The translations under genes and the position numbers were made by a program. Below, piece by piece: positions 38,101 through 61,081 of a stretch of 64,000 bases of DNA. Where the stretch lies: contig CALXMA010000003.1 of NCBI GenBank assembly GCA_944389345.1, positions 24,294-88,293 of the forward strand. Reading direction: 5' to 3'. This DNA is from an uncultured Alphaproteobacteria bacterium (GTDB taxonomy: Bacteria; Pseudomonadota; Alphaproteobacteria; Rs-D84). The notes beneath the pieces are model-generated. The model made no database searches and was not told where the DNA came from. It saw nothing but the letters and a program-made list of their open reading frames with translations. Position 1 is the stretch's first letter. Each line of letters opens with the position of its first letter.

Positions 38101-38129
38101 TTGCAAATATTTATTTTTAACGATAACAT
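38101..38129 (+). promoter_or_regulatory. Putative sigma70 promoter of cassette A
   Basis: TTGCAA-17 nt-TAACAT just upstream of the first leader hairpin. Confidence 0.6.
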
Positions 38130-38137
38130 GATATTTG

Positions 38138-38377
38138 TGAATGGGTGTTCCATTCATGGGGTGTAACGACCTCTGCACACGCGTCGGAATATAATCTCGT
38201 GGCGCATCAATTGCGCTATTTTTACTATTACGACGAAAAACAAACTCCTGATTTTATGGGTCAGGAGGGTCGCGGAATATCAAATACGCGACACAATTCG
38301 TGTGATTGTCGTTAACCTCCTGACCACCAAATTTTGTTGGTGGTTTTTCATTTCGAAAAACATCAGGAGTCCAGACA
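38138..38377 (+). ncRNA. Structured leader RNA, copy A (C4/CI-like switch; NCCA-ended module 38259-38329; terminator 38322-38348)
   Basis: Same order of hairpins as copies B and C with compensatory changes; GGTCAGGAGG / CCTCCTGACC + ACCA. Confidence 0.75.
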
Positions 38378-38914
38378 ATGAAAACAAATTTTATATTACA
38401 CATTGGGATATTTGCGATACTAACCACAATACCCAACATCGCCAATGCAATTGGCATCGGTGGTACTGGTTGTATTCAAGGCCCCGGCATGACTTGCGAA
38501 TGTTCTGGTGGAAGCAACGCTGGTGCAACATGCACGGTAAATTCACAATGCCCTGGTGGAACATGCGTAAACGTCGGCGGCGGTATAACGCCGCCCACCC
38601 TTTGCACCCCAGAAAACTGCAAACCGACCACAACCGGTTGGGGTTCATGCGGTGTTGGCGCCAATTCGTATGTCGAATGCGAAGCAACCGCCGAATGCGT
38701 GAACAATTTGTGTGTACGTGGCCAAAATTACCGTTGTGTTGCCGGCGCATACGGCAACCCCAGCGCATCAAACGAAACCGCCTGTGCACCATGCCCATCA
38801 CCCGGAACATCGGCCGCGGGTTCGACCAGTCAATCCGATTGTTATATTCCGGCCGGAACCACCGGGTCGGACAGTACGGGCACGTATAAATATACGGCCA
38901 ATTGTTATTACTGA
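38378..38914 (+). CDS. Small Cys-rich secreted protein (family S)
   Basis: Signal peptide ILTTIPNIANA; C-terminal CYIPAGTTGSDSTGTYKYTANCYY. Confidence 0.85.
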   Translation: MKTNFILHIGIFAILTTIPNIANAIGIGGTGCIQGPGMTCECSGGSNAGATCTVNSQCPGGTCVNVGGGITPPTLCTPENCKPTTTGWGSCGVGANSYVECEATAECVNNLCVRGQNYRCVAGAYGNPSASNETACAPCPSPGTSAAGSTSQSDCYIPAGTTGSDSTGTYKYTANCYY

Positions 38915-38918
38915 TGCA

Positions 38919-38966
38919 TTTCCCCCAAAAAACATTCCCCCATCTTGGGGGAATGTTTTTGTTATT
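38919..38966 (+). terminator. Terminator-containing ~48-bp element, near-identical to 50648..50694
   Basis: tttcccccaaaaaacattccccca(t/c)...gggggaatgttttt; differs from the other copy by one substitution and one indel. Confidence 0.8.
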
Positions 38967-39034
38967 ACGCGCGCATATATGGGGTACGCCAATTTCATAA
39001 AAAAATCCCCATTTCGGGGATTTTTCACAACACC

Positions 39035-40135
39035 TTATGCAACCTTCTTCATATCGCGCTTTACATCACGTATGTATTTACGCAATTCATCAATTGGCAC
39101 CTGGGTCCCATCACGCCGTTCCGCAGACCAATAATCCCATCCGTTAAAACTGACACAATGTTGCAAACGCGCGGCCATAACATGAATAGATGCCTTGCCC
39201 ATCAACGGATGCACCAATTGTCCATCACGTGCAATCATGACACGTTCACCACGCGGACTGACCAAAGTCTGACCAACATACAGCAACCCTGCCTCGATTA
39301 ATTCCTTGAACGCGACGCGAATTTCGGCGCGTTTTGGTGTGGCCACCTCAATCCCAGACAAATCAATGGGCTTTACCGCATCAACACGCGCACGTGCGGC
39401 GGCAACATAATCTTCTTCCCGTTCAATACCGATAAAATTGCGCCCCAATTCCTTGGCCACGGCGGCGGTTGTACCACTGCCCAAGAACGGGTCCAAAATA
39501 ACATCCCCCTGGCGGGTTGACGCCAAAATCACCCGACGCAATAAATCCATAGGCTTTTGAGTATTGTGCAAACTTTTACCATCAGAATCTTTGACACGTT
39601 CTTCGCCCAAACAAATATTTATATTCCAATCAGACCGCATCTGTTTGCCACCATTTAACTTTTTCATTGTTTCATAGTTAAACGTGTACTTACCGGTCTT
39701 ACGTGGTGTTGCCCATATTAATGTTTCGTGCGCATTCGTAAAACGTGTCCCGCGGAAATTCGGCATAGGATTAGTTTTAACCCACACAATATCATTCAAA
39801 ATCCAAAATCCCAAGTCCTGTAAAATCGCACCAACGCGGAAAATATTATGATAACTGCCGATGACCCACATTGCCCCATCGGGTTTCAACACGCGCTTGC
39901 ATTCTGCCAACCACGCCCGCGTAAATTCATCATATTCGGCCATACTGCCAAAAGAATCCCACGAATCCCGAACGGCACGCGCCGCGGTTTGATCTTCGGG
40001 CCGATACAGTGTCTTGGCCCCCAATTGCAAATTATACGGTGAATCTGCAAATACGGCATCCACAGATGCATCTGGTATTCCGCGCATCAGTTCCACGCAA
40101 TCACCGGTCAAAATCTGATTCAGGTATTTTTCCAT
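39035..40135 (-). CDS. ccrM: CcrM-like adenine DNA methyltransferase (beta class)
   Basis: FADSPYNLQL, WVIGSYHNIFRVG, NPMPNFRGTRFTNAHETLIW, DPFLGSGTT, C-terminal NGWDYW domain. Confidence 0.88.
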   Translation of the reverse strand: MEKYLNQILTGDCVELMRGIPDASVDAVFADSPYNLQLGAKTLYRPEDQTAARAVRDSWDSFGSMAEYDEFTRAWLAECKRVLKPDGAMWVIGSYHNIFRVGAILQDLGFWILNDIVWVKTNPMPNFRGTRFTNAHETLIWATPRKTGKYTFNYETMKKLNGGKQMRSDWNINICLGEERVKDSDGKSLHNTQKPMDLLRRVILASTRQGDVILDPFLGSGTTAAVAKELGRNFIGIEREEDYVAAARARVDAVKPIDLSGIEVATPKRAEIRVAFKELIEAGLLYVGQTLVSPRGERVMIARDGQLVHPLMGKASIHVMAARLQHCVSFNGWDYWSAERRDGTQVPIDELRKYIRDVKRDMKKVA

Positions 40136-40310
40136 CTCTCTCTGGTCTCAACCAACATTTTACCACAAAACGCCCCTATTAAAAATTGACCGGCACCCCG
40201 CGGGAACAAATAAAGTTCTTGATTTTTATAAAAAACGCATTTTTTTGGATTTTGCGCCCACATTAAATTCTGCTTTACAGTTTGCATTTTGACTGCTACC
40301 GTATATGGAT

Positions 40311-40811
40311 ATGAGATGTCCATATTGTAATTCTACTGACAGTCGCGTGACTGATTCCAGACCCGATACCGAAGACGCCATTATTCGGCGTCGCCGTGTT
40401 TGCAATCAGTGTGGCGCCAAATTTACGACCGTAGAACGTGTACAAATGCGCGATCTGATGGTCCGTAAAAACAGCGGAAAGTTAGAGGCATTTGACCGCG
40501 AAAAACTGCGTCGCAGTATAAAATTGGCGTGTCGTAATCGTGATGTCGGTGATGAACAGATTGAAAAACTGGTAACATCCATCCATCGCCGTCTGGAAAC
40601 AGAAACGGCCGACGACACGGTAACCAGTGCCTTGGTTGGCCAAATGGTATCAGATTCATTATTGAACCTGGACCCGATTGCATTTGTACGCTTTGTATCC
40701 GTATACCGCAAATTTTCGCGGATTTCGGATTTCAAGAAAATCATCGACCAAATACCCGAGGCTGATGATGATGCATCGGTATGCAAATTGCCCAAGACAT
40801 CACTATTCTGA
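40311..40811 (+). CDS. nrdR: Transcriptional repressor NrdR
   Basis: MRCPYC...DSR...IRRRRVC..C zinc ribbon, ATP cone, FVRFVSVYR. Confidence 0.96.
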   Translation: MRCPYCNSTDSRVTDSRPDTEDAIIRRRRVCNQCGAKFTTVERVQMRDLMVRKNSGKLEAFDREKLRRSIKLACRNRDVGDEQIEKLVTSIHRRLETETADDTVTSALVGQMVSDSLLNLDPIAFVRFVSVYRKFSRISDFKKIIDQIPEADDDASVCKLPKTSLF

Positions 40812-40817
40812 TAATCT

Positions 40818-42548
40818 ATGAAAAAACTTTTCACATTTTTAATAGCACTGTTTTTGCCAATGGCCGCCATTGGGGCGGACCTGCCTAACATAGACGTACT
40901 GTCTGATGCCGACGCCAGTTTATATACACAAATATTCCTGTTACAATCCCAAGAAGAAATCAGCGCGGCACAAAAACTGGAAGAACAACTGACCGATCCC
41001 CTGTTAATGAATGAAGTTTTGTATCAGCGCTATATTTCTGATACATACCGCACACGCGGTCGCGAAATAACCGCATGGATGGAAAAATACTATGATATGC
41101 CGGGGGCGGAACGCATGGTAAAACTGGCCAAAATTAAACAGGCCACCGTGCGCAAGGCGTCTGTTCCCCGTTCTATCAGTGGCGGTGCATCAATTGAAAC
41201 GGCCCAATCAGAAACATGGACGGCGAAAAAATACACTGGTGAAACAAATACCAAGATTAACAAGTTCAAACGCGCCATACGCAGTGGCGCAACAAAAACC
41301 GCCCGTTTGATTCTAGAAGACGCGTCTTTACGCAAAAAATTAACAGAATCTGACTATGGTCGTCTGGCCGGACGATTGTCATTTATATATTACACAAACG
41401 GTGAAACAGAACTGGCCAAGAAATGGGGTTTTGTGGCGGCCGATGCAAAATCAGAATACGGCCTGTGGGCGATGGGATTGCTGTATTTCCAAGAAGAAAA
41501 ATTCGACGAAAGTGAAAAATATTTCAGTGCTATATTAGACCTGGAACAGATAAACAACGCCCGCAAGACCGAGGCCGCATTTTGGGCTGGTCGTGCCGCA
41601 TACGAAAACGGCGAACGTTCCCAGGCAAAAAAGTATTGGAAAATCGCAGCCACATATCCAATGGCGTTTTATGGCGCATTGGCGTCCGTAATGCTGGGGC
41701 ACACACCACGATATGAATTCTTTGAACAAGACTGTACCGACGAAGACATAGACACACTGCGCGAAAGCAAATATGGAAAACGCGCGTTGGCACTGTTACA
41801 GGTCGGCCAAAAAGATCGCGCCGAATTATACTTGAAATATATGATAACCGCGCGCGTATCAGATAAAACATTGCACGCAATAAATTCTGTGGCGACGGCG
41901 TACGGCCTGCCCCGTGTGTCTATCCAGGCATCCAGTCTGGTCCAAGACCGTGGCATTTTGGAAATTGATGACAATATTATATATTCCGCACAATATCCCC
42001 TGCCAGATTGGGAACCGATGGGCGGTTGGTCAATCGATCGCGCATTACTGTTGGCCATCACAAAACAAGAAAGTGGTTTCCACGCAAACGCAAAATCTGG
42101 CGCGGGCGCGAACGGTCTGATGCAAATTATGCCCAGTACCGCCAAGCGTGTTGCCCGTGAAAACCAGGTTGATATGTCTGAAATAGATATGTCTAAACCC
42201 GAACACAATATGTTCTTGGGTCAACAATATATCGTGGATTTACTGGCGCACCCGAACATCAACAATAATATTATAAAAATGTTGGCGGCATATAATGCGG
42301 GCATGGGCACCATGGTTGAATTTGAAAAAAACTTTGAAACATACGACCCATTACTGTACATAGAAAGTTTCCCAACATACGAAACCCGCAGTTATATAAA
42401 GCGCGTTATGTCTAACCTGTGGTTGTATCGCGCCCGTTTGAACCAACCGTTAACCACTATGAAAGATTTGGCAGACGGTGAATGGCCATTGTATAACAGC
42501 GAAGACGAATACGTGCAAAAGCAAATCGCCGACCGCATGTCAATTTAA
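40818..42548 (+). CDS. Soluble lytic transglycosylase (SLT domain with TPR-like region)
   Basis: Signal peptide; QESGF, GLMQIMPSTA, AAYNAG and ETRSYIKRV motifs. Confidence 0.92.
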   Translation: MKKLFTFLIALFLPMAAIGADLPNIDVLSDADASLYTQIFLLQSQEEISAAQKLEEQLTDPLLMNEVLYQRYISDTYRTRGREITAWMEKYYDMPGAERMVKLAKIKQATVRKASVPRSISGGASIETAQSETWTAKKYTGETNTKINKFKRAIRSGATKTARLILEDASLRKKLTESDYGRLAGRLSFIYYTNGETELAKKWGFVAADAKSEYGLWAMGLLYFQEEKFDESEKYFSAILDLEQINNARKTEAAFWAGRAAYENGERSQAKKYWKIAATYPMAFYGALASVMLGHTPRYEFFEQDCTDEDIDTLRESKYGKRALALLQVGQKDRAELYLKYMITARVSDKTLHAINSVATAYGLPRVSIQASSLVQDRGILEIDDNIIYSAQYPLPDWEPMGGWSIDRALLLAITKQESGFHANAKSGAGANGLMQIMPSTAKRVARENQVDMSEIDMSKPEHNMFLGQQYIVDLLAHPNINNNIIKMLAAYNAGMGTMVEFEKNFETYDPLLYIESFPTYETRSYIKRVMSNLWLYRARLNQPLTTMKDLADGEWPLYNSEDEYVQKQIADRMSI

Positions 42549-42597
42549 TAAAAATTGTATTTTATTCCGCCGATAATCGTGATACTGTGTGGTGGAT

Positions 42598-43224
42598 ATG
42601 AAAACAACCCCGACATTTGATATAGAAAACGAAACCGGATTTGAATTGGTTGCCGGCGTGGACGAAGCCGGCCGTGGTCCCCTGTGCGGTCCGGTTGTCG
42701 CGGCGGCGGTTATATTTCCAAAACGCAACATTGAAATCCCGGTTGTAATTCGTGATTCAAAACAAATGACCGCACACATGCGCGCCACCGCATACGAATG
42801 GATAACACATAATACAATATGGGCAACAGCACAATGCAGTGCATCTGAGATAGACGAAATGAATATTTTACGTGCATCACTGACCGCCATGACACGTGCG
42901 GTTCAAAATTTGGGTTGTGCGCCCCAGTTTTGCTTAATAGACGGGAACAAATTGCCCCCTGAATTAAATGCCACACCAATTATTCATGGCGACGCAAAAT
43001 CATTATCCATCGCCGCCGCGTCCATTATCGCCAAAGAAACACGCGACAAAATCATGCATGAATTGGCGCAAATATACCCTATGTATGGCTGGGACAAAAA
43101 TTCGGGATATCCGACCGCGGAACATTTGCACGCCATTGATAAATATGGTATAAACGAACATTATCGAAAAACATATAAACCCGTAAAGGAAAGGATAAAC
43201 AAAAATGAAACTACGCACGATTGA
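42598..43224 (+). CDS. rnhB: Ribonuclease HII
   Basis: GVDEAGRGP, DSK, IDGN and SIAAASIIAK motifs. Confidence 0.96.
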   Translation: MKTTPTFDIENETGFELVAGVDEAGRGPLCGPVVAAAVIFPKRNIEIPVVIRDSKQMTAHMRATAYEWITHNTIWATAQCSASEIDEMNILRASLTAMTRAVQNLGCAPQFCLIDGNKLPPELNATPIIHGDAKSLSIAAASIIAKETRDKIMHELAQIYPMYGWDKNSGYPTAEHLHAIDKYGINEHYRKTYKPVKERINKNETTHD

Positions 43225-44374
43225 AAATCTGGACGTTCGCGGAAAATATATTTTATTACGCGACGACTTTAACGTTCAAATTGTGGACGGAAAAATTACC
43301 GACGCATTCAGAATTGAACAAAGTATGCCAACGATTAACGCACTGCGCGCCGGCGGTGCCCGTATTGCGATTTGCGCACACCTGGGCCGACCAAAGGGTA
43401 CCCGCAACATGGAATTTACTTTGGCGCCCATCGCCGAATACATGGGCGTGAAATTAATCCCAGATTGCCTGGACAAAGATTTCTTGGCTCAAATGAAAGA
43501 CGGCGACGTTGTACTGCTGGAAAATGTGCGCTTTTACCCGGGCGAAGAAAAAAATGACCCAGAATTTTCCGCCCAGTTGGCAAACGGATTCGACATTTTT
43601 GTAAACGACGCATTTGCCGTATCGCACCGTGCCCACGCCAGTACTGTTGGTGTTGCGGAAATATTGCCATCATACGCGGGGAAATTGTTGGCGTCTGAAA
43701 TCGAACACCTAACCGCGGTAATGGAAAATCCACGACGTCCATTGCTGTCCATTGTCGCAGGCAGTAAAGTTTCCACCAAAATCGGTGTATTAAAGGCCCT
43801 GGCAAAATTATCAGACAAATTGATAATCGGTGGTGCACTGGGGACAACATTTAATTACGCACTGGGCGGGCGCGTTGGCAATTCACTGTACGAAGCCGAC
43901 CAAAAAGACACCGCCTTGGAAATTCTGGAATACGCCAAAGAAAATAATTGCGATGTTTTGTTGCCACTGGACAAAGGTGTTGCCAAAGAATTCACACCAA
44001 CCGCCACACGCACAAATAAAAACTTTGATGAAATCCAAGACGACGACATAATAATTGACGCGGGCACAGAAACAACAGAACGCGATGTCGCGGCAATTAA
44101 ATCGGCGGCCACGGTCATCTGGAACGGCACGGTCGGCATGGCAGAATGGCAACCCACATGGTCATACGGCTCATTTGCAATCGCACACGCCATCGCGGAA
44201 CAAACACGCGCCGGCAAACTGGAAAGTATTGTTGGCGGTGGTGATACGGTCGCCGCACTGGAAGCATGTGGTGTCAAAGACGACATAACATACGTATCCA
44301 CCGGCGGTGGTGCATTCCTGGAATTTATCGAAGGTCGCACCCTGCCCGGAATTGCGATACTGGAATCCAAATAA
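43205..44374 (+). CDS. pgk: Phosphoglycerate kinase
   Basis: DFNV, HLGRP, LENVRF, NDAF..HRAHAS, GGGDT and STGGGA motifs. Confidence 0.97.
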   Translation: MKLRTIENLDVRGKYILLRDDFNVQIVDGKITDAFRIEQSMPTINALRAGGARIAICAHLGRPKGTRNMEFTLAPIAEYMGVKLIPDCLDKDFLAQMKDGDVVLLENVRFYPGEEKNDPEFSAQLANGFDIFVNDAFAVSHRAHASTVGVAEILPSYAGKLLASEIEHLTAVMENPRRPLLSIVAGSKVSTKIGVLKALAKLSDKLIIGGALGTTFNYALGGRVGNSLYEADQKDTALEILEYAKENNCDVLLPLDKGVAKEFTPTATRTNKNFDEIQDDDIIIDAGTETTERDVAAIKSAATVIWNGTVGMAEWQPTWSYGSFAIAHAIAEQTRAGKLESIVGGGDTVAALEACGVKDDITYVSTGGGAFLEFIEGRTLPGIAILESK

Positions 44375-44560
44375 ACGATTTGTTATGAATATAAAACGCC
44401 CCCACAAACGGGGGTGTTTTTATATCGTACATCCAACAAAAGAACATCAAAAAACAAATAACGCAACAAGGGACAAAAACATAAACACAACAAACCCGGG
44501 GCACAATATCACAACAAAAAATCCCCGCAATTGCGGGGATTTCAAACTATTACGCGAATA

Positions 44561-45394
44561 TTATTCTGCGTCCAATGCCGATTCGATTTGGTCGGCTGGG
44601 ATTGCACCCGGGAACGCCTGTTCACCGATGATCAAGAACGGTGTACCGGTGATTTCGAAACGCTGTGCCAAATCACGAACATTTCTCAATTCACGTGCAA
44701 CGACTTCGCCTTCCATATCTTCTTTCAGTTTTTTGGTATCCAAACCAACTTCTTCGGCGAACTTCATAACACTCGCTTCGACTTTTTCAGCAATCTTGGA
44801 TTGATCTGACAAATCTTCCTGGCTGTAATAATCACGTGTCATCAACATATCTGTCAATTTAGCCGCTTTTTCAGGATCCTGGATATTTGCCGCGATAACA
44901 GCCTTGGCCGGTGCATCAGACAAATCGCCATGGATAGAGAAGTTTTTGATAACAACGCGAACATCGTCACGGTCTGCCAATACGCGGTCTATTTCACCGT
45001 GTACACGACGGCAGAACGGGCAAGAGAAGTCTGTCCAAACATAAATCGTTTTCTTTGCGTCTTTGCGATTACCCATAATTGGCGCATCACGCATCATTCT
45101 GTCGCCTTCCGAGCGAACAAACTTACGAATCTGTTTGTTTTTTTCGGCGTTCTGCTGTTCCTGCATACCGGTAATCATTTCCTGAACGATAATCGGGTTA
45201 ACCGCGGTCAGATAGTACGGCATATACAGACGGCAAACACTGCCCGCAATCAAGATGATTGCAATCAAAGTAATGGATTTTTTTACAACGATCTTCCCAG
45301 CGGATGGTTTCTTTTCATCGCCCTTTGGCAACAGCATGCCACCAAACAAGAACAACAAGATACCAATCACCAGAACCAAGATTGTCCAAGTCAT
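44561..45394 (-). CDS. Membrane-anchored DsbA/Com1-like thioredoxin-fold protein
   Basis: Two N-terminal hydrophobic helices; DFSCPFC active site; GTP cis-Pro loop. Confidence 0.88.
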   Translation of the reverse strand: MTWTILVLVIGILLFLFGGMLLPKGDEKKPSAGKIVVKKSITLIAIILIAGSVCRLYMPYYLTAVNPIIVQEMITGMQEQQNAEKNKQIRKFVRSEGDRMMRDAPIMGNRKDAKKTIYVWTDFSCPFCRRVHGEIDRVLADRDDVRVVIKNFSIHGDLSDAPAKAVIAANIQDPEKAAKLTDMLMTRDYYSQEDLSDQSKIAEKVEASVMKFAEEVGLDTKKLKEDMEGEVVARELRNVRDLAQRFEITGTPFLIIGEQAFPGAIPADQIESALDAE

Positions 45395-45474
45395 AGTTTT
45401 TCTCCTTTATTTGTTGAACTGTGTACAGATTAATCAAATTTTTTTTTGTATGCAAGAACTAATTAAACATAAAT

Positions 45475-46116: not shown

Positions 46117-46205
46117 TTCGCACGCATTATATACATATACATATAAAAAGTTCACAAAAAAAAGAAACCCCGCAAACGCGGGATTTCGTAAAATACTGGT
46201 AAAGG

Positions 46206-46817: not shown

Positions 46818-46984
46818 TTTATCTGTCCTTTGTTCAAGTTAGGGATAAAACCCAAATTAAAATTTATACACAACACCCACGCATATGGATTGGTGAATTA
46901 TGTGCGTGGGTGGGCAGTGTTCACCCCGGTCCCGACGTGTATCAGACACACACAAGGAACTGTGAACACGCCCCACACACATAA

Positions 46985-47212
46985 TTAACCAAGATTATTG
47001 CGAACGAACGGCATCAGTCCCAAATGACGTGCACGTTTAATGGCAGTTGCCAATTCGCGTTGATCTTTTTGGGAAACGCCACTGATACGCGACGGCACGA
47101 TTTTACCGCGTTCGGTTATATAGTGGGACAATGTTTTAATATCTTTATAATCAATAACCTTGCCCTTTAACGGGTTAGATTTTTTACGATAAATTGCTGC
47201 ACGGACTGCCAT
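46985..47212 (-). CDS. rpsR: 30S ribosomal protein S18
   Basis: IDYKD...[12 protein letters not shown]...QR.LA.AIKRAR. Confidence 0.96.
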
Positions 47213-47740: not shown

Positions 47741-48520
47741 ATGACCAATCAATTTCATCGCGCACTGAACAGAATGGCATTTTTCACAGCACTGTTGCTA
47801 GCGGGACTGATACTGTTTTACGAACCGTTTTTGCGCGTTGCATCGGCGAATATATTGCTGAACGGAATAATCATTGGCACAACGATATTCGGCATTGGCC
47901 TGTGCTTTGTCGAAATGTTCAAATTATTACCAGAATACAAATGGGCGCGTGCATATTTTTCTGGTCGGAAAAATGCACCATTGCCACCGCGCCTGTTGCG
48001 TCCGGTTGCACTGATATTGCGTGCCCGCCCGGTCCGTATATCTGCGACAACGCTGAACGGCATGCTGGACATGATTTTGTTGCGCTTCGAAGATTCACGT
48101 GAATCCGTGCGCTATATAACAAACACATTGATATTTTTGGGATTGCTGGGGACATTTTGGGGATTAATTCTGACCGTGGGCGGATTTGCGGAATTAATCG
48201 GCAACTTGGACTTTGCGGATGACGCGGTATTGGAAACAATGCGCAACGGGTTAACTGGCCCATTATCTGGGATGGCAACGGCATTCACATCATCATTGAT
48301 GGGTCTGGCGGGCAGTTTGATGGTCGGTTTCCTGGGGTTACAGGTACAATTGGCCCAGAACGGCATATTCCGCGAACTGGAAGATTATTTGTCCGCCCAT
48401 ACCAGTGTTGCCACAACAGACACTGTTGCAACGGTATTACCCCAGATAAGCAATGCCACAAATGAATTAAACAAAAGTGTCCAAGAATTAAAACAAACGT
48501 TTTCTGAATTGGCCCAATAA
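47741..48520 (+). CDS. MotA/TolQ/ExbB proton-channel family protein
   Basis: LGLLGTFWGL and GMATAFTSSLMGL transmembrane motifs. Confidence 0.85.
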   Translation: MTNQFHRALNRMAFFTALLLAGLILFYEPFLRVASANILLNGIIIGTTIFGIGLCFVEMFKLLPEYKWARAYFSGRKNAPLPPRLLRPVALILRARPVRISATTLNGMLDMILLRFEDSRESVRYITNTLIFLGLLGTFWGLILTVGGFAELIGNLDFADDAVLETMRNGLTGPLSGMATAFTSSLMGLAGSLMVGFLGLQVQLAQNGIFRELEDYLSAHTSVATTDTVATVLPQISNATNELNKSVQELKQTFSELAQ

Positions 48521-49687: not shown

Positions 49688-49717
49688 CGAACCGCCAAAT
49701 TGGCGGTTCGTTTTTTT
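49688..49717 (+). terminator. Intrinsic terminator
   Basis: cgaaccgcc / ggcggttcg followed by seven T. Confidence 0.8.
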
Positions 49718-49743: not shown

Positions 49744-49772
49744 TTGTATTTACCAGGCCACTAAACTATAAT
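49744..49772 (+). promoter_or_regulatory. Putative sigma70 promoter of cassette B
   Basis: TTGTAT-17 nt-TATAAT. Confidence 0.7.
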
Positions 49773-49778
49773 CTACAC

Positions 49779-50024
49779 TGAACCTGAACGGATATCGGGT
49801 TCGGGACTTCGAAAATCCCTTACAATGTCGGCGTTATGCGTCGTTAATCCAAAATGGCTTACTTATGCCATTTATCCCGACTTTGGTCGGGTTGCCACAG
49901 ACATACAACAGAACACACGTGCGTTCAAAATCTGTGGGGTCATTACATTGTATGATTTTTCGAACTTCCCGACCACCAGGTTTTTGGTGGTTTTTGTTTA
50001 CACACAAACAAAGGGAAACGAAAA
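49779..50024 (+). ncRNA. Structured leader RNA, copy B (NCCA-ended module 49885-49978; terminator 49971-49995)
   Basis: GGTCGGG / CCCGACC + ACCA; clear sequence similarity to copy C and same architecture as copy A. Confidence 0.78.
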
Positions 50025-50633
50025 ATGAAAAAATCATCACTGCTAATCATACCATCGATAATGATGGGAATATTAACAATCCCCAACACGGCATTTGGAT
50101 TAATTACAACCTGTAATCGGGTAGGATGTATGCCATCGGATCCCAGCATCCAAGTCCGGGGCATAAATTGTGCAATGTCAACCGCCACATGTTGGAGCAA
50201 TGGCACCCACAAAACGGGTGTTGAATCATGCACAATCTGCGAAAGTGGATATACCAAGGTATCCAAATCAACGATCCTAAGCTGTGGGAGTGGTACGGTA
50301 ACCGCGACATATAATACATGTTTACCCACCTGTACCACTTCAAATTGTAAAAGCGACACGTCATGGTCGGCCGCGGGCACGGGATATCAAAAAAAGGCGA
50401 ACCGTTCATGTTCCGACAGCACCACATGCAAAACCACATATTCATATCGTTGTGCGGCGGGATATTATGGTTCTTCGTCAAACGGAACATCCGGGTGCAA
50501 TCCATGCCCCAGTGGCGGCACATCATCCGCGGGTACAACATCTGCAACGGGTTGCTATATTCCATCGGGGACCACGGGTTCTGATTCCACGGGTACGTAC
50601 AAATATACATCCAATTGCTATTGGAAGAATTAA
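50025..50633 (+). CDS. Small Cys-rich secreted protein (family S)
   Basis: Signal peptide ILTIPNTAFG; C-terminal CYIPSGTTGSDSTGTYKYTSNCYW. Confidence 0.85.
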   Translation: MKKSSLLIIPSIMMGILTIPNTAFGLITTCNRVGCMPSDPSIQVRGINCAMSTATCWSNGTHKTGVESCTICESGYTKVSKSTILSCGSGTVTATYNTCLPTCTTSNCKSDTSWSAAGTGYQKKANRSCSDSTTCKTTYSYRCAAGYYGSSSNGTSGCNPCPSGGTSSAGTTSATGCYIPSGTTGSDSTGTYKYTSNCYWKN

Positions 50634-51179: not shown

Positions 51180-51295
51180 GTATCACCCCTTTTGTTCGTT
51201 TACGCATACATAATATCACATTTATCATAAAAAAAGTCTAGGAATTTATTTTTTGTTTCATACAAAAAAACCGCCCCGACATTGGGGCGGTTTAA

Positions 51296-53860: not shown

Positions 53861-53886
53861 ACCATTCCCCCGCGTAATCACACACA

Positions 53887-56067
53887 TTACATATTAATGT
53901 CTTCGCAACTTTCAATTTCCTGACAGAATTCCTGTTCGCCACCGGCACTGCGTCCTGCAAAGAATCCGCCAACCGCACCAACGACGGCACCAATTGCGGT
54001 TCCCCAACCCGGCGACACCATTGTCCCCGCAGACGCACCGGCCGCCAAACCACCTGCGGCACCCTGGGCCCCGGCGGCACCCTTAGACTGCCCACCGACT
54101 TCGCACACCTGTTGCATACGACAAACGTGGCAATTACGCAACGCCGGTTCAAAGGATACACTGCGTATATAACTATAATTTTTACTGGACTTATCCGGTG
54201 TTTCAACCTGATACATGTTATAGCAGTTTTCTTCCGCTTCTTCCAAACTTTGCTGGCGCGACAGTTCCGCAATCTTAGATTCTAATTCACGCATAGCACG
54301 ATTTTCGGCATTAATTTGCGCAATCATTTTGGCACTGTTAAACACGCTGTCCCCCAGACTGCGTCTGTCCGCGGGCTTTTGCGTATCCATACACGCGGCC
54401 ACGGTTTTATCCTGTTCAAATTGTTCAAAGAATTCATCAACTGTACTTTCCATATTGGAACGCACGGTTTCACGCAACAGCGCCAGTTCTTCTTGTGTAT
54501 CGGGCACTTCGACCAGCGATGCAATCTGGGTATCTGTCGGCAGACAAGACATATCTGTCCCACAAACCGCACCCAATTGTTCACTAAAATAATTCAAACA
54601 GCCCTGCAACATCTGATAATCCATCTGCAACAACACGGCTTGGACAATGATATCGAATTGCGGTTCGTTTTTGCACGATGGGAACATGCTCTGTGGGCAC
54701 AGTTCCGCGATTTCGACCGCGCTTTTTCCAACACATTCTGGCGCGGTAAAGTTATCACCGCATCTACTGCGCATACATTGGTCAATATCATTCTGACAGA
54801 ATTGTGTTTGCAAATATCCCAATTTGTCATTAACCGCCGTTTTAATTCCCGGTATCATTTCTTCGCATTCGTCGATAACTGGACAAACACCCGCCGCAAC
54901 ATTAACGTCGGTCAAACACGCAGAATTGGTTTCTGGCGAACAACTGTCTTCCAGACACAACTGAATCCGCGCCAAACATGTCGCACGTGCATTTCTGTCG
55001 GCATATTTGGCCGCATCGACCAAGATAGATTCGGCCTCGGCCTCCCAGTCTTGCAACACATATTCACGCACGGCCATACATTGATCCAAAACATTTTCGC
55101 ACGCATTCGCACGACGATTTAACAAATCCGCATCCAAACAGTTTTCAAAATTCACACCACAACCGCCCTTGTCTGCGATACAAGACCGATACGCCAACAA
55201 ACATTCACCGCGATTATATTTGTTTGTCGTATCTAACATTTCCAAACGCGCCTGACGAACGGCGGCCTCGGCCGTGCGCTTGTTTTGTTCCGCAATGGAT
55301 TTCTGATCTGCCAAATACGTTTCAAATGTTTTACAGTCTTGAACAATCTGGCGCGCATACAGCATTTCTTCCATTTCGGCATCATCACCACAAGATTTCA
55401 ATCTGTCGGCACAATATTCCGCCGCCATTGCGTACAGGTTATCGCCAATATCATAATCCGCCCCCAAACCATCGGACACATCGTTGCCACTGTTAATCCA
55501 TTCGGTAAAACTTATACCCGACACACGTGAACTTTTCTGTGCTTCTTCACTTTCGCCAAAGACCAAACGCGCCTGTGCCCCCAGTTGTTCACGTTCAACA
55601 CCCTCGGTATACAACAGGTCTGCCTCGTTTTGAATTTTCTGAATTTCTTGAATTAATGATTTTGCCTGATTTATATTAGACGAACACGCACAGCGTCCAC
55701 CCTCGGTTTCATCCAGCAAACAGAATTCATCCATACACGCCCGATACGCATCGCGACAAGACTGTGAAACAATCGCACCGGTTTCACCATCACCACCGTC
55801 ATCTTTGACATCGTCATCATCCGCATTATCCGGCGTCGTTGTTGTTCCGCCACCCGACACAGATGTCGACCCACCACCCGGTTTTATCGACAATGTCGGC
55901 ATAGACGCAGTATTACTGTCTGACAAATCCACCGACATATTCCCGGAATGCAACCCGGCCTGGGCCACACGATTCACCCCCACGCGCACGGTTCCCGACG
56001 TTCTGTCCACACCGAACGCGACACCTGGGCAAACGGCCAACAATGCAAAAAAGAATCCTAGTTTCAT
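53887..56067 (-). CDS. Large Cys-rich secreted protein (family L) with C-terminal glycine zipper
   Basis: Signal peptide; CRDAYRACMDEFC...RCACSS; GAAGGLAAGASAGT..PGWGTAIGAVVGAVGG. Confidence 0.85.
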   Translation of the reverse strand: MKLGFFFALLAVCPGVAFGVDRTSGTVRVGVNRVAQAGLHSGNMSVDLSDSNTASMPTLSIKPGGGSTSVSGGGTTTTPDNADDDDVKDDGGDGETGAIVSQSCRDAYRACMDEFCLLDETEGGRCACSSNINQAKSLIQEIQKIQNEADLLYTEGVEREQLGAQARLVFGESEEAQKSSRVSGISFTEWINSGNDVSDGLGADYDIGDNLYAMAAEYCADRLKSCGDDAEMEEMLYARQIVQDCKTFETYLADQKSIAEQNKRTAEAAVRQARLEMLDTTNKYNRGECLLAYRSCIADKGGCGVNFENCLDADLLNRRANACENVLDQCMAVREYVLQDWEAEAESILVDAAKYADRNARATCLARIQLCLEDSCSPETNSACLTDVNVAAGVCPVIDECEEMIPGIKTAVNDKLGYLQTQFCQNDIDQCMRSRCGDNFTAPECVGKSAVEIAELCPQSMFPSCKNEPQFDIIVQAVLLQMDYQMLQGCLNYFSEQLGAVCGTDMSCLPTDTQIASLVEVPDTQEELALLRETVRSNMESTVDEFFEQFEQDKTVAACMDTQKPADRRSLGDSVFNSAKMIAQINAENRAMRELESKIAELSRQQSLEEAEENCYNMYQVETPDKSSKNYSYIRSVSFEPALRNCHVCRMQQVCEVGGQSKGAAGAQGAAGGLAAGASAGTMVSPGWGTAIGAVVGAVGGFFAGRSAGGEQEFCQEIESCEDINM

Positions 56068-56214
56068 GAAACCCACCCTACATAATTTATATATAATTTT
56101 ATCAAATGCGCCCCATCGGTGCAAGCAGATATAAAAATATCTTGCAATTTTTTTGATAACGCCATATTATTACACCTGAATTTTTTTCAGTTAATACAAC
56201 AACGGAATATATGT

Positions 56215-56460
56215 ATGGCAAAAGATGATGTAATCGTTTTTTCTGGCACGGTCGAAGATAAATTACCGAACACTATGTTTCGGGTACGCTTGGAAAACGG
56301 CCACGAAATTTTGGCGACTGTTTGTGGCAAAATGCGCAAGGCACGCATTTGGGTAAACGTCGGCGAACGCGTACGCGTTGAAATGACCCCATATGATTTG
56401 GACAAGGGACGCATAACATTCGTTGAACGCAACCGCCCATCCACGGAACAGCAACAGTAA
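56215..56460 (+). CDS. infA: Translation initiation factor IF-1
   Basis: MAKDDVI...[13 protein letters not shown]...GKMR...[12 protein letters not shown]. Confidence 0.97.
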
Positions 56461-56575
56461 TCAAAAAAATCCGCCAACGGCGGATTTTTATCAATATATT
56501 TTTGCCCCAATATGGATAAATAACACTTTCCAATACGGCATATTTTTGTTATCATTTACCTGTATAAAACGGGAA

Positions 56576-59176
56576 ATGAGGAATTTTTTTATTTTCATCA
56601 TTGCGTGTTTAATCGGCATCGCAAATGCCGATGGTGCCGTACGTGATTCAGACGCCGTTTCCCGTGGCGGGAAATCTGCCACCGACACAAATACAATCAT
56701 TGCCCGCACGACAACGGTTGTCCCAACCACCCGAACATCCGAACGCGCACTGGGTTCGCGCGAAGCGACAACGTCCGGTGGACGTGGAACAAACATTGTA
56801 TCGCGTGGCGACAATATATCACGTGGTGCGAACCGCACCGCAACAGACACCACCGTTGCCCGTTCGGCGCGCACCACAACAACCCCACAAACGACCACAT
56901 CTGGGCGCAGTGCGACAAAAACCGTTTCCCGAACATCAAATATGTCGCGCGCATCGGCAACAAATACGGTTGCACGTTCTGCCCGCGCGACCAGTGTTGC
57001 CCCCGTATCTGTAACGAATACATTTGGCACAGATTATAATACATGCCGTAATGCGTACTTTACATGCATGGACCAATTTTGCGCCACCGCGAACGACCAA
57101 TATCGCAGATGTGTGTGCTCGTCGCGCCTGACAGATATCCAAGAACGCGAACGCGCCCTGTCACAAACGGCGGGCCAAATCCAAGATTTCAAAGATTTGA
57201 ATATAGAGGTTATACCAAAAACCGCCGAAGAAGTGCACGCCATGCTGAACGCAACCGAAGGTGAATTGGCCATCATCGAAGATAAATCTGCATCGGCCCA
57301 ACAATTGGCAGGCATCAGCGAGGTTTTATCATCCGCCAAGCACCAGGCGTTAAACACACTGGGGACACTGGACATTGCAGGCGACATCAATCAAATATGG
57401 GCAACAACAGATTTGGCATCTGGGGCAAATATATCAAACCTGACTGGCGAAGCGTTATATAACGCCGTCCACGCCCAATGCGTTGAATTAATTTCCGCCC
57501 AATGTCCATCCAGTGCGACACTGAACATGGTCGTATCTGCGTACGGCATGTACATAGAAAATGATTGCACAACATTGTACAATGCCCTGGATACCCAGTT
57601 GAACCAGGCGAACAGCACAATACGCGAAACAGAACGTGAAATGAATACGGCGCGTCTGGACAACTATAACGCCCACAATTCAACATCTATCAACGATTGT
57701 ATTGCCCAGGTACGCGCCGACATCACCGCGGACACTGCATGCGGTACAGATTATGTTCATTGCCTGGACGTAACGGGCCAGTACTTAAATCGTGATACTG
57801 GCGAACCCATATATACACCTAATTTCTATCAATTGGCGAACCAGGTTTCACTCGAAGGCGACGTCCTGACCAATCCAACAAACCGAATGATTGTTGCGGA
57901 ATTAAACAGCAAGCGTATCTATGCAGAACGCGGTTTGGAAACATGTCGCGACATTGCGAACGACGTCTGGGACGAATTCCTGCGCCAGGCGATTGCCGAA
58001 ATATACCAAGGCCAACAGGAAAAAATCCGTACCGTCAAGAACGAATGCCTGGACGTGGTCAACGCCTGCTATGATGAGCAGAGTGAATCGTTAAAAGATT
58101 TTAGCAATATCAAAGAAGAATTATTGGCGGGTTCACGTCTGGAATTATCCGAAGAATTATGCGAAGAAAAACTGTACGCGTGCAGTAATTTATACGGCGA
58201 CCCCAATGGCGAAGGTCTGGAATTATTAATAACCGCAATGCACGACATCACAGATCAAAAGATTGCCAAAGAATGCAAGGCATTATTAGAGGCCTTTGCG
58301 GTTGACACCTGCTCTACGCCCAGCAACGACAGTTTACACGCATATCCGTACGCGTGCCGTGTTTACGCGCCTGGTGAACAAAAGTATGCAACCAATTGGT
58401 TCTGTAATCAATTGCAATGGGAAAACACATCCGGTGGTGCGGGTTCCGGGATTATTCCGGGTGGCGGTGGTGGTGGCGGTTCATCCACCAACGGATACGT
58501 ATGCCCAGAATCAATTATGTACACATCATGCCGTGCGGGATACTTTATGGCGATATACGATTCAAACCGTGGCGGTTACGCATACAACGGCACACCAACG
58601 GCGGGCAATTCGTGTCAACCATGTCCCGCGGGTTCCAAATGTCCTGGTGGCACCGAAGCCCCCGAAGGTGGCGATTTCTCGCCAACGGATACAAATTGTG
58701 GTCCCGACTATGCGGGCAGTCTGTATCAGCGTATGGTTAAATACGCGACCCAGGTCTGTGTACGTCCATCTTATTACGATGCGATTATGACGGGTGAAAT
58801 GGATATTCCGATGACGGTATTGCAAGACGTCAACGTGGTAATGGATTCCATACGTGTTGACATGGCCAAGGCCCTGTCTGCGGAATGCGACAGATTGGGT
58901 GGCCAATGGGTTGACACCCAATGGTTGGACGTTATGGAAAACACCGACACGAACGGCAACGGGACACTGGACAATATATCCGATAATGTACACGACAAAA
59001 CAGATCACGTATTGTTCAAATATTTCTATGATGAAACTGGTGCAAATACCAAATGGGGATTCTGTGCGGAAATCCCGACCGACGAAGAAGAAGCAACAGA
59101 AAAAGAGGAAGAAGAAGGCGAAGGCGAAAGCGAAGGCGAAAATTCCGGCGAAGAATCTGGTGGTGAAACGACGTGA
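56576..59176 (+). CDS. Large Cys-rich secreted protein (family L) with T/R/S-rich N-terminus and acidic tail
   Basis: Signal peptide; CRNAYFTCMDQFC...RCVCSS; most similar to 17812..20982. Confidence 0.85.
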   Translation: MRNFFIFIIACLIGIANADGAVRDSDAVSRGGKSATDTNTIIARTTTVVPTTRTSERALGSREATTSGGRGTNIVSRGDNISRGANRTATDTTVARSARTTTTPQTTTSGRSATKTVSRTSNMSRASATNTVARSARATSVAPVSVTNTFGTDYNTCRNAYFTCMDQFCATANDQYRRCVCSSRLTDIQERERALSQTAGQIQDFKDLNIEVIPKTAEEVHAMLNATEGELAIIEDKSASAQQLAGISEVLSSAKHQALNTLGTLDIAGDINQIWATTDLASGANISNLTGEALYNAVHAQCVELISAQCPSSATLNMVVSAYGMYIENDCTTLYNALDTQLNQANSTIRETEREMNTARLDNYNAHNSTSINDCIAQVRADITADTACGTDYVHCLDVTGQYLNRDTGEPIYTPNFYQLANQVSLEGDVLTNPTNRMIVAELNSKRIYAERGLETCRDIANDVWDEFLRQAIAEIYQGQQEKIRTVKNECLDVVNACYDEQSESLKDFSNIKEELLAGSRLELSEELCEEKLYACSNLYGDPNGEGLELLITAMHDITDQKIAKECKALLEAFAVDTCSTPSNDSLHAYPYACRVYAPGEQKYATNWFCNQLQWENTSGGAGSGIIPGGGGGGGSSTNGYVCPESIMYTSCRAGYFMAIYDSNRGGYAYNGTPTAGNSCQPCPAGSKCPGGTEAPEGGDFSPTDTNCGPDYAGSLYQRMVKYATQVCVRPSYYDAIMTGEMDIPMTVLQDVNVVMDSIRVDMAKALSAECDRLGGQWVDTQWLDVMENTDTNGNGTLDNISDNVHDKTDHVLFKYFYDETGANTKWGFCAEIPTDEEEATEKEEEEGEGESEGENSGEESGGETT

Positions 59177-59255
59177 TATCTGGCGCCAAATAATGAATAT
59201 GTTATCTTGCCTTGGATAAAAATTTTTGTTAAAATTAAGAAAACGAGAGAAGAAA

Positions 59256-59975
59256 ATGAAAAAAATATTCGCTGTTTCTGTTATGTGTTTAATGTTTGCG
59301 CCATCGGCGTTTTCTGCGGTTCCATGGTGGGAACAACCGACGATATGTAAATTGGATCCAACGGATTGTTATTCGACAATGGGCGCCGGCTATGATGGCG
59401 AGGCATGGGATTCCGAAACTGGATGTTGGGGCATGAAATACATCTGTCCTGAGGCGTTAAAGACCCCTGGTTCATATCAACCCGTGCTGATGGGACGCCA
59501 AGAAATTGCCAGTGGTAACAAGATTAACATAGACTATGACACAAACATTTTGAACGGCGATTGTTTTGGTGTTCGCAAGACGACCGATAATGGCGCGATG
59601 GCATCTGTTAACGGCGAATATGTGCGTGTATGGTGCAACGGCGTTCTGGACAATCCGGACCCGGACAATTATCTGCCAAATGGCGAATTGCCAGAAAACG
59701 GTCGCGAACCAACATGTTCGGAATTGGCACGCAACGGATTTATGGCGACCCAGGCGGGTAAATGCTTTGGTAAATATTACGATCCTATGAAATATAAGAT
59801 TGAATGTGGCGACCCGAATTCTATTTTTGCAACAAACATATTGGAATTGAATGGCGCGGATCCATCGTATACGTACGCGAATGCCCCCACAACGGCGGAT
59901 GACGCGGACGACATATTCGACCGGATGCAGGAAAAATCCGCGTCCCAGCGCAAGATATATTTCCAAGACGATTAA
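59256..59975 (+). CDS. Cys-containing secreted hypothetical protein
   Basis: Signal peptide ending AFS/A; multiple cysteines; followed by a hairpin and T run. Confidence 0.75.
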   Translation: MKKIFAVSVMCLMFAPSAFSAVPWWEQPTICKLDPTDCYSTMGAGYDGEAWDSETGCWGMKYICPEALKTPGSYQPVLMGRQEIASGNKINIDYDTNILNGDCFGVRKTTDNGAMASVNGEYVRVWCNGVLDNPDPDNYLPNGELPENGREPTCSELARNGFMATQAGKCFGKYYDPMKYKIECGDPNSIFATNILELNGADPSYTYANAPTTADDADDIFDRMQEKSASQRKIYFQDD

Positions 59976-60113
59976 CACGATATAACAAACATCCCGCGTA
60001 ATGCGGGATGTTTTTTTCCTGTATTGTAAAAACACGGAAATGTGCACATGCACACGTTCATTACATGTACCTGTGTCGGGTGTGAAAAACCGTAAATACA
60101 AATTGTTATCGCA

Positions 60114-60380
60114 TCAGTAATAGCAATTACCAGAATACGTGTACGACCCGGATCCATCGGACCCAGATGTCCCGGACGGTATATAGCAACCACTGATGCC
60201 GGACGTACCGCCATCGGACGCACTGCCGGGCGACGGACACGTCGCGCAATCGCCACTTGCCAGGTAATATCCCGAATTACATGATGAATACGTTTTTGTT
60301 GTTGCCGTACATGCACCGTACGCAACATTTGCCACGCCACACATTGCAACGATGGCAGAAAACAAGAATAACTTTCTCAT
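60114..60380 (-). CDS. Minimal Cys-rich secreted protein (family S, 88 aa)
   Basis: Signal peptide MRKLFLF...AYG; C-terminal CYIPSGTSGSDGSGSYTYSGNCYY; ATGA overlap with the upstream gene. Confidence 0.82.
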   Translation of the reverse strand: MRKLFLFSAIVAMCGVANVAYGACTATTKTYSSCNSGYYLASGDCATCPSPGSASDGGTSGISGCYIPSGTSGSDGSGSYTYSGNCYY

Positions 60381-60754
60381 GATATGCCCCCTGTACACGC
60401 CAAGCACGATATTGGTGACGGCGGATTTGATGTTACTCCGTAACATGCATACGTGGTGGTGGTTGGTGCACACGTACCGTAATTTTGCGTATACGATCCC
60501 TTGGAATCAGAACCACTGGTGGCGTCGCGACGACATTCGTCATACAAAACGTTATACGACCACCCTGTTGGACAAGTATAACTTGTTCCCTGTTTACCAT
60601 TCGGACAACAATATGACCCCGATCGGCAACTCGGAGAGCGCACACAAGTTTGCACGCTCATACATAACGTTGGCATTACCGCCCCAGCGGGCATTATGGG
60701 AACAGTCAGTGTTGCGAACACAACGGCCGTCCCGGCGATTAGATATTTTTTCAT
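60377..60754 (-). CDS. Small Cys-rich secreted protein (divergent relative of family S)
   Basis: GGGGGA RBS; signal peptide MKKYLIAG...AGA; internal TSGSDSKGSYT motif. Confidence 0.8.
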   Translation of the reverse strand: MKKYLIAGTAVVFATLTVPIMPAGAVMPTLCMSVQTCVRSPSCRSGSYCCPNGKQGTSYTCPTGWSYNVLYDECRRDATSGSDSKGSYTQNYGTCAPTTTTYACYGVTSNPPSPISCLACTGGIS

Positions 60755-61046
60755 TTTATCCCCCATTGTTTTAATAACCCGTCCGTCCAGACACCCAGAC
60801 GAACGAAACAAAAAACCGCCCATGAATTGGCGGTCGGGGATTTGAAAAATCATAAAAGAAAATGACCCCGCGATTTTTAGGGATTGCCCCCTGTTATATA
60901 GTCGCAGATCCCCGACACTCATGTCGGGTGATAAAACACACGGCGCACACGCGCCGACGTTTTCTTGTCGGATTCAGTACTGAATTAATCAGCACAGTTC
61001 TTTTACAGGATTTTCAAGTCCCTGAGCCGGCGTCCCCGCCAGTTCA
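60755..61046 (-). ncRNA. Structured leader RNA, copy C (NCCA-ended module 60917-60828; terminator ~60834-60809)
   Basis: GTCGGGGAT / ATCCCCGAC-C + GCCA; homologous to copy B. Confidence 0.78.
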
Positions 61047-61052
61047 ATACAA

Positions 61053-61081
61053 AGTATATCGTATCATTGACACAAAAACAA
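61053..61081 (-). promoter_or_regulatory. Putative sigma70 promoter of cassette C
   Basis: TTGTTT-17 nt-TATACT on the minus strand, same distance to the first hairpin as in copy B. Confidence 0.6.

Follow-up and report, generated by a model that had tools for sequence, protein, structure and literature searches.

What might be the function of a structured leader that recurs in front of one family of genes and, at each locus, spells out its own pair of short words together with their complements? This question is raised by a window of 64,000 nucleotides (nt), the whole stretch of DNA analyzed here, which spans positions 24294–88293 of contig 3 in an 894 kb assembly (98.8% complete) of an uncultured α-proteobacterium. 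Among named organisms the closest are Candidatus Enterousia (Alphaproteobacteria, order Rs-D84), described as uncultured gut bacteria with genomes smaller than 1 Mb and a life that is probably partner-dependent (PMC12306168). A sequence-only reading of the window had described three such leaders, A, B, and C, as equivalents of the C4 and CI antisense RNAs of phages, and direct inspection of the sequence finds every listed element of the three in place. Judged from sequence and predicted structure, the leaders are a chromosomal, multi-copy form of the C4/CI/IsrK/sRNA-Xcc1 kind of leader RNA, in a family that is absent from Rfam. By analogy with these RNAs, and with a rough probability of 0.55, we read them as self-addressed devices combining an attenuator with a translational switch, from which a released RNA would feed back on its own locus in a direction that we leave unspecified.

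The evidence for this conclusion starts with the size of the family, which exceeds the three leaders originally described. A motif scan combined with nhmmer locates 28 copies in the genome, divided between two subtypes, approximately 15 of type A and 13 of type B, and R1, a covariance model built on the 3′ half of type A leaders, returns 26 matches that include type B copies. Leader A belongs to type A, leaders B and C to type B; five type A copies form a variant, named after its CTCCAAC motif, with a different closing stem. The leaders are promoter-proximal and about 200–290 nt long. In leaders A to C, the leader follows the terminator of the preceding gene, its first hairpin, H1, begins a few bases past the −10 box, and it closes with a terminator-like hairpin and a T run, the ribosome-binding site (RBS) and start codon of a small gene lying 25–60 nt farther on.

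Each leader carries in its 5′ arm two words, word1 and word2, whose complements, word1′ and word2′, lie in a compact 3′ module. For leader A the pairs are 38164–38170 with 38308–38314 (word1) and 38176–38181 with 38299–38304 (word2). We have followed these helices in two alignments, A4 and A5, which hold 140 type A leaders (all distinct and of full length) and 47 of type B. The word1 helix is 99.8% paired in type A and 98.1% in type B, four of its seven pairs changing on both sides in either subtype; the word2 helix is 97.9% paired in type A, where five of six pairs change on both sides, and 96.0% in type B, where all seven do. A single word1 pair of type A may serve as example, being GC in 58 leaders, AU in 34, CG in 28, UA in 19, and unpaired in 1. 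None of 500 shuffles reaches the observed pairing, and partners slid along the sequence are only 35–55% paired. Hence the covariation between words and complements, which had been called perfect on three leaders, holds near-perfectly across the family, with 98–100% pairing in type A and 96–98% in type B. G-U pairs are almost missing from these helices, amounting to 0–3 of 140 leaders per pair in type A and 0–2 of 47 in type B, whereas they are common elsewhere in the leader, for instance 17–19 of 140 in H1. The leaders as a whole are also more stably folded than expected: z-scores against 200 shuffles per leader are −7.6 for A, −6.0 for B, and −4.7 for C, with no shuffle as low as the native fold in any of the three.

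Leader A, on the + strand, illustrates how the words are embedded. Its promoter region (38101–38129), read from the sequence, has a weak −35 box at 38101–38106, a 17-nt spacer, and the −10 box TAACAT at 38124–38129; in the −10 columns of the 140 type A leaders, TAnnnT is present in 138 and TATAAT in 86. Then comes H1 (38138–38156), a predicted hairpin whose helix is 99.3% paired in the 140 homologues, all seven pairs changing on both sides. The 5′ arm (38158–38181) consists of a local hairpin, GGGG/CCTC, that presents word1 in its loop, followed by word2 in single-stranded form; the second pair of this hairpin in type A (column 66/81) is GC in 71 leaders, GU in 44, AU in 25, and never unpaired. 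Stem P2 (38182–38235), with an inner GGCGC hairpin and a short T run, is 89–98% paired in homologues, G-U pairs being present. The inner hairpin of P2 (38199–38219) was itself called terminator-like and is followed by a run of 4–5 T; most type A leaders have this feature at the same spot, where transcription could pause or stop early, still within the leader. Downstream lies the sequestering hairpin (38245–38267), in which strand X (38245–38251) pairs with X′ (38261–38267), the 5′ strand of the closing stem of the module. Since X is a copy of Xd, the 3′ partner of X′, X′ has two possible partners; when exact strings of 5 nt or more are required, this X/X′/X triple is present in 137 of the 140 type A leaders and 32 of the 47 of type B, with a sequence that differs between the subtypes.

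The module of leader A (71 nt, 38259–38329; 125.6 bits with R1) is delimited by a closing stem (38259–38268/38316–38325) and encloses a first hairpin (38269–38292) and a second hairpin (38293–38309), which displays word2′ (38299–38304) in its loop; word1′ (38308–38314) is single-stranded between this hairpin and the closing stem, and an ACCA tail (38326–38329) ends the module. The stem of the hairpin that carries word2′ differs between subtypes in a compensatory way, and covariation extends to H1, the P2 stems, and the module hairpins. GGTC starts the module in 125 of 140 type A leaders; after the closing stem, 127 of the 140 have ACC and 112 of the 140 have ACCA, while in type B the stem is followed by RCCA in 44 of 47. 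The NCCA ending ascribed to the modules is thus present in A, B, and C (ACCA, ACCA, and GCCA) without being a universal rule, as the five copies of the CTCCAAC variant end in ACCT (three), GCCC, or GCTT. The intrinsic terminator (38322–38348) overlaps the closing stem, on its 3′ strand, by 2–4 nt; the terminator stem is 93% paired among the 140 type A homologues. Terminators had been proposed after all three modules, and terminator-like sites are indeed called there (38322–38345 in leader A). The RBS (38363–38369) and start region (together 38363–38380) are complementary to 38305–38310 and 38316–38322, and paired in the predicted fold. Gene A (38378–38914, +) encodes 178 amino acids (aa) with a signal peptide, 17 Cys, and a conserved C-terminal motif.

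The two type B leaders repeat the same order. Leader B (+) lies behind the terminator called for the gene upstream (49688–49710) and starts with a −10 box, TATAAT, read at 49767–49772, followed by H1 at 49780–49802 (sequence and predicted fold). Its 5′ arm, which extends to 49828, has word1 (49808–49815) in the loop of a GGGA/TCCC hairpin and then word2 (49821–49828), their complements being at 49957–49964 and, in a hairpin loop, at 49945–49952. The sequestering hairpin (49876–49891) joins X (49876–49881) with X′ (49886–49891), a helix that is 95% paired among type B leaders; the module (94 nt, 49885–49978) has its closing stem at 49885–49891/49968–49974 and ACCA at 49975–49978. The terminator (49971–49997; site called 49971–49992) and the RBS with start region (50013–50027) lead to gene B (50025–50633, +; 202 aa, 17 Cys). 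Leader C, on the − strand, follows a called terminator at 61110–61087 and comprises a −10 box (61058–61053, read from the sequence), H1 (61046–61023; sequence and predicted fold), word1 (61017–61011, with 60848–60842), and word2 (61005–60998, with 60860–60853). Its sequestering hairpin (60928–60908) pairs X (60928–60923) with X′ (60916–60911); in its module (90 nt, 60917–60828) the closing 3′ strand is at 60841–60832 and GCCA at 60831–60828. The terminator (60835–60808; site called 60835–60814) and RBS (60764–60758) precede gene C (60754–60377, −; 125 aa, 11 Cys). A second Cys-rich gene (60380–60114, −; 88 aa), which encodes the same C-terminal motif, lacks a separate leader and overlaps the stop of gene C with its start (ATGA), so leader C probably controls a two-gene operon. 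In 40 type B modules, RNAalifold predicts the closing stem and the second hairpin unaided; the inner three pairs of the closing stem covary, and its extension does so too, column 11/93 being GC in 25 and UA in 14.

If the words are pairing codes, each leader should recognize itself, and the claim that each has its own code finds support from duplex energies within the genome of the window. Duplexes of the 3′ arm with its own 5′ arm, both delimited by alignment column, have a mean of −15.4 kcal/mol in type A, against −5.3 with foreign arms, and of −15.9 against −6.2 in type B; the own arm is the best partner for 134 of 140 and 46 of 47 leaders, respectively. All 19 copies compared in the window genome favor their own arm, by 2–11 kcal/mol. 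An exact site for word1 plus word2 was found at the own locus for 18 of these 19, the 5′ arm of the remaining copy having been missed by the exact-match scan, perhaps for reasons of alignment (L018). The same genome scan returned only two single sites elsewhere; both lie inside coding sequence, and we rejected them as trans targets, considering them chance sites. In 134 type A leaders word1′ takes 16 forms and word2′ 64, an unusually clean natural set of orthogonal pairing codes. The word helices alternate freely between A-U and G-C while remaining nearly devoid of G-U, and word1′ comes as a small set of discrete variants; the sequences thereby suggest that words are exchanged whole rather than drifting stepwise.

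What follows the leaders is equally consistent. Of 142 type A leaders, 137 have the start of an open reading frame (ORF) of 50 aa or more no farther than 140 nt away, as do all 38 type B leaders examined, and the ORF always shares the strand of the leader. The proposal that the leaders precede genes for Cys-rich proteins is borne out, as 149 of the 175 with a nearby ORF encode a protein with at least 5% Cys (119 of 137 in type A and 30 of 38 in type B, with median Cys contents of 8.2% and 8.1%); of the 858 long ORFs of the genome, 8.6% reach that 5% level. A signal-like N-terminus is present in 127 of 137 and 27 of 38 of these ORFs, respectively. In the genome of the window, 21 of 26 downstream proteins fall into one BLAST cluster, with bodies that are variable and Cys-rich, and a C-terminal motif of about 25 residues, CYIP.GTTGSD.TG.Y.Y...CY, is common to 21 of the 26, the products of genes A and B included. 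Proteins A, B, and C fall into no Pfam family, and the Protein Atlas gave no usable match for protein A. The association suggests, from sequence, gene-by-gene RNA control of a repertoire of surface proteins.

Which known RNA do the leaders resemble? At gathering threshold, the 4227 Rfam models detect three tRNAs only in the whole window, and none of the known riboswitch or leader families among them matches the leaders; even a relaxed search finds nothing below E 0.1 for leader A. Across 20 leader loci, the relaxed search yields matches to sRNA-Xcc1 (RF02221, gathering score 53 bits) and, besides these, one weak match to SgrS. Seven of eight type B loci match sRNA-Xcc1 over model positions 1–87 with 25–37 bits, and in the whole genome there are ten matches of 25–38.2 bits, all ten on modules. 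Leader B scores 29.8 bits over positions 1–87 and leader C 38.2 bits over the same positions (E 1.4e-5, whole genome); the module starts that had been read from sequence, 49885 and 60917, coincide with the boundaries of these matches. In the reverse direction, R2, a covariance model built from 40 type B modules that gives leaders B and C 80.8 and 87 bits, was run on 150 genomes of the phylum and matched, beyond the family, only six other Alphaproteobacteria. One of these matches (39 bits, genome G402) scores 66 bits with the Rfam model of sRNA-Xcc1, above the cut-off, and is therefore a true member; two others score 46 and 36 bits. Given these full-length matches below threshold and the reciprocal detection, the modules are, on sequence criteria, divergent members of the sRNA-Xcc1 family.

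The relationship is evident in the fold, since sRNA-Xcc1 has the same closing stem, first hairpin with an AUACAA...GAA internal loop, second hairpin, single-stranded joint, and RCC tail. The differences are that type A has a simplified first hairpin, that here about 28 copies populate a genome of 0.9 Mb and have an intrinsic terminator fused to the module, and that the genes downstream encode Cys-rich secreted proteins, whereas sRNA-Xcc1 is associated with an integron cassette, in which it lies upstream of symE in the same orientation (10.1101/2025.06.18.660453). In Xanthomonas, sRNA-Xcc1 is a discrete RNA of 88 nt (PMC2996969), and in Xylella it is annotated adjoining C4 and isrK (PMC12189769). 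In an α-proteobacterium with a genome of 8 Mb, a locus with sRNA-Xcc1 (66 bits; L228, 1340–1650, +) has a word complementary to the single-stranded joint on both sides of the module, the upstream word in a hairpin loop and the downstream word about 25 nt before a start codon. As read from its sequence, this is a C4-like layout of a1 and a2 sites, and it suggests that sRNA-Xcc1 itself works as a C4-like leader with word sites upstream and downstream; the portions of the sRNA-Xcc1 literature consulted contain no mention of such a layout. Another α-proteobacterial relative carries the entire 5′ arm.

The comparison with C4 (RF01695) rests on the arrangement of parts. The P1 record has the order promoter, a1, b1, C4 (77 nt), a2, b2, icd, with about 65 nt from b1 to C4, and by our own reading of the C4 sequence b′ stands before a′, b′ in a hairpin loop and a′ before the closing stem. 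Leaders and C4 of P1/P7 have in common the order of parts, the nested b′/a′ arrangement, the site at the RBS, and the GGU start. Unlike C4, the leaders lack an exact a2/b2, the partner of their RBS being instead the closing stem, by its 3′ strand, together with a portion of word1′; they possess an intrinsic terminator and the extra sequestering hairpin X, and they are chromosomal instead of phage-borne. In P1, just upstream of c4 (48327–48352), 6 nt could pair with the strand that opens the C4 closing stem on its 5′ side; they are a possible counterpart of the X:X′ hairpin, but may be due to chance. RNase P excises C4, which blocks an RBS, and a few changed word bases suffice to give it specificity (PMC5320573). 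P4 CI finds its pairing sites on both sides of itself, upstream and downstream, and causes termination (PMC4825925); the likeness of CI, with its seqA and seqC, consists in a leader-borne RNA that pairs with sites of its own transcript, the control of termination being extended to our leaders by analogy. The same analogy holds for IsrK of Gifsy-1, in which read-through of its own terminator yields an inactive mRNA, the long form, that is then switched on in trans by the short one (PMC4825925); in the leaders, too, the mRNA would arise by terminator read-through. The isrK model itself returns only noise here and also matches 9 of 14 control genomes. A precedent for many chromosomal copies in one genome is Group 1 of Acinetobacter baumannii, C4-like small RNAs (sRNAs) with variable a′ that are processed from longer transcripts at a GGW motif (PMC5320573). 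These differ from our leaders in matching the Rfam C4 motif, and their description presents them neither as leaders of a single protein family nor as bearing matching upstream words. We conclude that the comparison with C4 and CI is right in architecture and, through sRNA-Xcc1, probably right in ancestry as far as sequences tell.

How would such a leader work? The 3′ arm of the module has three possible partners: its own 5′ arm, X′ in the closing stem, and the RBS. It carries, within Xd, an anti-Shine-Dalgarno sequence which, together with neighboring bases, is complementary to the region around the RBS and start codon of the gene that the leader precedes. This complementarity had been noted in the three leaders and is real, even if the conserved anti-Shine-Dalgarno part accounts for most of it: duplexes between 3′ arm and RBS average −13.4 kcal/mol for the own gene and −12.2 for foreign genes in type A (own better in 104 of 134), and −11.0 against −9.8 in type B (own better in 23 of 31; 5 of 5000 permutations as low). 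In the proposed mechanism, most transcripts would end at the terminator, while the choice of X′ between X and Xd, biased by a free or occupied 5′ arm, would set the extent of read-through and also whether the RBS of the read-through mRNA is open. The module, or the terminated leader, would be released as in C4, CI, and IsrK, the candidate enzyme being RNase P acting at the GGU start adjoining the RCC(A) tail; bacterial RNase P RNA binds the RCC part of such a tail (PMC12710915). RNase P RNA is present in the genome, and so is Rho, while Hfq was not found in it. Because matching words are carried nowhere else, the released RNA would act on transcripts of its own locus only, and each of the approximately 28 genes for Cys-rich secreted proteins would obtain its own feedback loop. 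When the 5′ arm is blocked in silico, minimum free energy structures with the closing stem rise from 6 to 42 of 128 and those with the full terminator fall from 117 to 85; in the constrained folds the closing stem excludes the word helices solely because the energy model, restricted to nested structures, lacks pseudoknots, and we do not claim mutual exclusion.

The self-addressed switch is favored by the behavior of C4, CI, and IsrK, together with the presence of RNase P RNA, the GGTC start, and the RCC(A) tail. Several observations weigh on the other side of the balance. The promoter scan called none of the sigma70-like promoters ascribed to leaders A, B, and C; what is kept, at a fixed distance before H1 in 138 of 140 type A leaders, is the TAnnnT element. 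In the genome scan the words have no exact second copy downstream of the kind that a2 and b2 represent in P1. The excess of RBS pairing for the own gene is only about 1.2 kcal/mol, among related leaders that are not independent of each other. Terminator and closing stem share only 1–4 bases, which on paper ties termination only loosely to the fold. Words and closing stem cross, and could coexist as a pseudoknot that the energy model cannot represent. As for the relationship with known RNAs, the scores for sRNA-Xcc1 (25–38 bits) stay below the cut-off, just one type A copy matches that model, with 25 bits, and leader A not at all. The Rfam C4 model has no match at E ≤ 1 in the genome, and neither R1 nor R2 matches c4 (48343–48419) within the immI region of P1. 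From the likeness to C4 and CI proposed at the outset, what survives is the element order of P1 and the resemblance to sRNA-Xcc1, not a match to the Rfam C4 model nor an exact downstream copy of the words. The sequencing runs found comprise chicken-gut metagenomes and four runs labelled as RNA; these four, consisting of contigs and in two cases probably DNA, have low and flat depth over the leaders, with no informative ends and no strand-changing joints, and bear neither way on transcription, processing, or inversion.

A different explanation draws strength from some of these same points: the leader could be a purely cis-acting structured 5′ untranslated region, sensing a protein, a ligand, or temperature, in which the words form a long-range closing helix and nothing is processed or acts in trans. 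The closed fold, with words paired, X:X′ formed, and the full terminator, lies on average 11.4 kcal/mol below the module fold and is the lower one in 139 of 140 leaders under the nested model; with such a ground state, a plain structured RNA that always terminates fits equally well. Moreover, H1 varies as freely as the words, each code is found only at its own locus, and the conserved loops of H1 and of the first module hairpin could bind a factor. Yet this explanation does not account for a module resembling a family founded on a discrete sRNA, nor for the conservation of the GGU start and RCC(A) tail. It also leaves the presentation of the words in, or next to, covarying local hairpins without purpose, as an ordinary helix would not need it, and it sits uneasily with word helices that avoid G-U pairs common in the rest of the leader, and with leaders that match no riboswitch or leader family of Rfam. 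We regard a cis-acting region as a possible but unlikely account, although the most serious of the alternatives.

Considerably less probable is that the modules belong to stand-alone sRNA genes which end at the terminators and regulate other mRNAs, the downstream genes having promoters of their own. The strong terminators after the modules would suit such genes, as would the title of Chen et al. (2011), which calls sRNA-Xcc1 a trans-acting sRNA. The near-constant presence of a same-strand ORF close behind the leader speaks against it, as do the complementarity of the RBS to the leader's own 3′ arm and the lack of a second target-like word site in the genome. Finally, we consider it very improbable that the words are locus-specific crossover sites in the inverted repeats of an invertible, phase-variable DNA segment, for although the word pairs are almost strictly Watson-Crick and the genes encode variable proteins of surface type, opposite-strand neighbors number 0 among 185 + 57 nhmmer matches in the loci and 18 + 25 in the genome, the sequences flanking the words do not themselves form inverted repeats, the G-U pairs of the other helices are on the sense strand only, and the promoter lies outside the segment that would flip.

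Granting that the leaders are self-addressed switches, what would this imply for the lineage? Leader-embedded antisense RNA of the C4/CI/IsrK type would extend beyond the phages and islands of γ- and β-proteobacteria, and would stand out as the principal regulatory device visible in an α-proteobacterial lineage that is uncultured, host-associated, and stripped of most other functions. It would also provide a testable hypothesis of how Enterousia controls its largest family of secreted proteins. A bolder version, which we hold to be rather doubtful, is that the approximately 28 switches are mutually orthogonal, every released module addressing nascent transcripts of its own locus alone, and that each Cys-rich surface protein is flipped singly by bistable feedback; if true, a gut symbiont of reduced genome would have RNA-based variation of its surface without DNA rearrangement. 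Our literature search found nothing joining C4 antisense RNA with Alphaproteobacteria, or Rs-D84 with non-coding RNA, in a survey that covered the Enterousia literature mostly at the level of titles; in the main text of the Enterousia paper, as far as available, the words RNA and cysteine are absent (PMC12306168).

The distribution of the family centers on this lineage. With R1 at E ≤ 0.001, matches are found in 126 of 151 genomes of the order Rs-D84 and 104 of 107 genomes of the genus; at most 25 matches per genome were scored, so that copy totals are lower bounds, amounting in the order to at least 1250 matches beyond those listed. The family has no entry in Rfam, although public genomes hold more than 1000 copies. 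Outside the order, 11 of 149 other α-proteobacterial genomes have one or two copies each, and the two such loci that we have read (L221 and L222) contain all leader elements. They are single leaders in distant genomes (1380–1800, −, and 1320–1740, +, respectively), one preceding a gene that resembles those of type IV pilins, the other a gene whose product has a signal peptide. A leader pattern of 25 letters finds at least 113 matching stretches in the species-genome collection; among the 80 matches listed, nearly all are titled Candidatus Enterousia, uncultured Alphaproteobacteria, or Rickettsiales, from animal and human guts. No viral contig matches the pattern, the one result here that bears on the earlier remark that the window contains no phage genes.

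The few other titles among the matches listed are those of a Muribaculaceae metagenome-assembled genome (two contigs), a Bacteroides fragilis bin, and Streptomyces (L129, L137, L151, and L106). Two of these loci, L129 and L137, hold full-length leaders, which suggests that they are mis-binned Enterousia contigs. Within the genome of the window, one locus on contig 14 (L006, 599–827) retains a type A module, terminator, and gene, with AT-rich sequence in place of the 5′ arm, and is a natural deletion of the upstream words. Regarding the neighborhood of the leaders in the window, a CcrM-like N6/N4 DNA methylase with a RAMA domain is encoded beside leader A (39035–40135, −), and an autotransporter with Chlamydia PMP repeats beside leader C (61138–63873, −).

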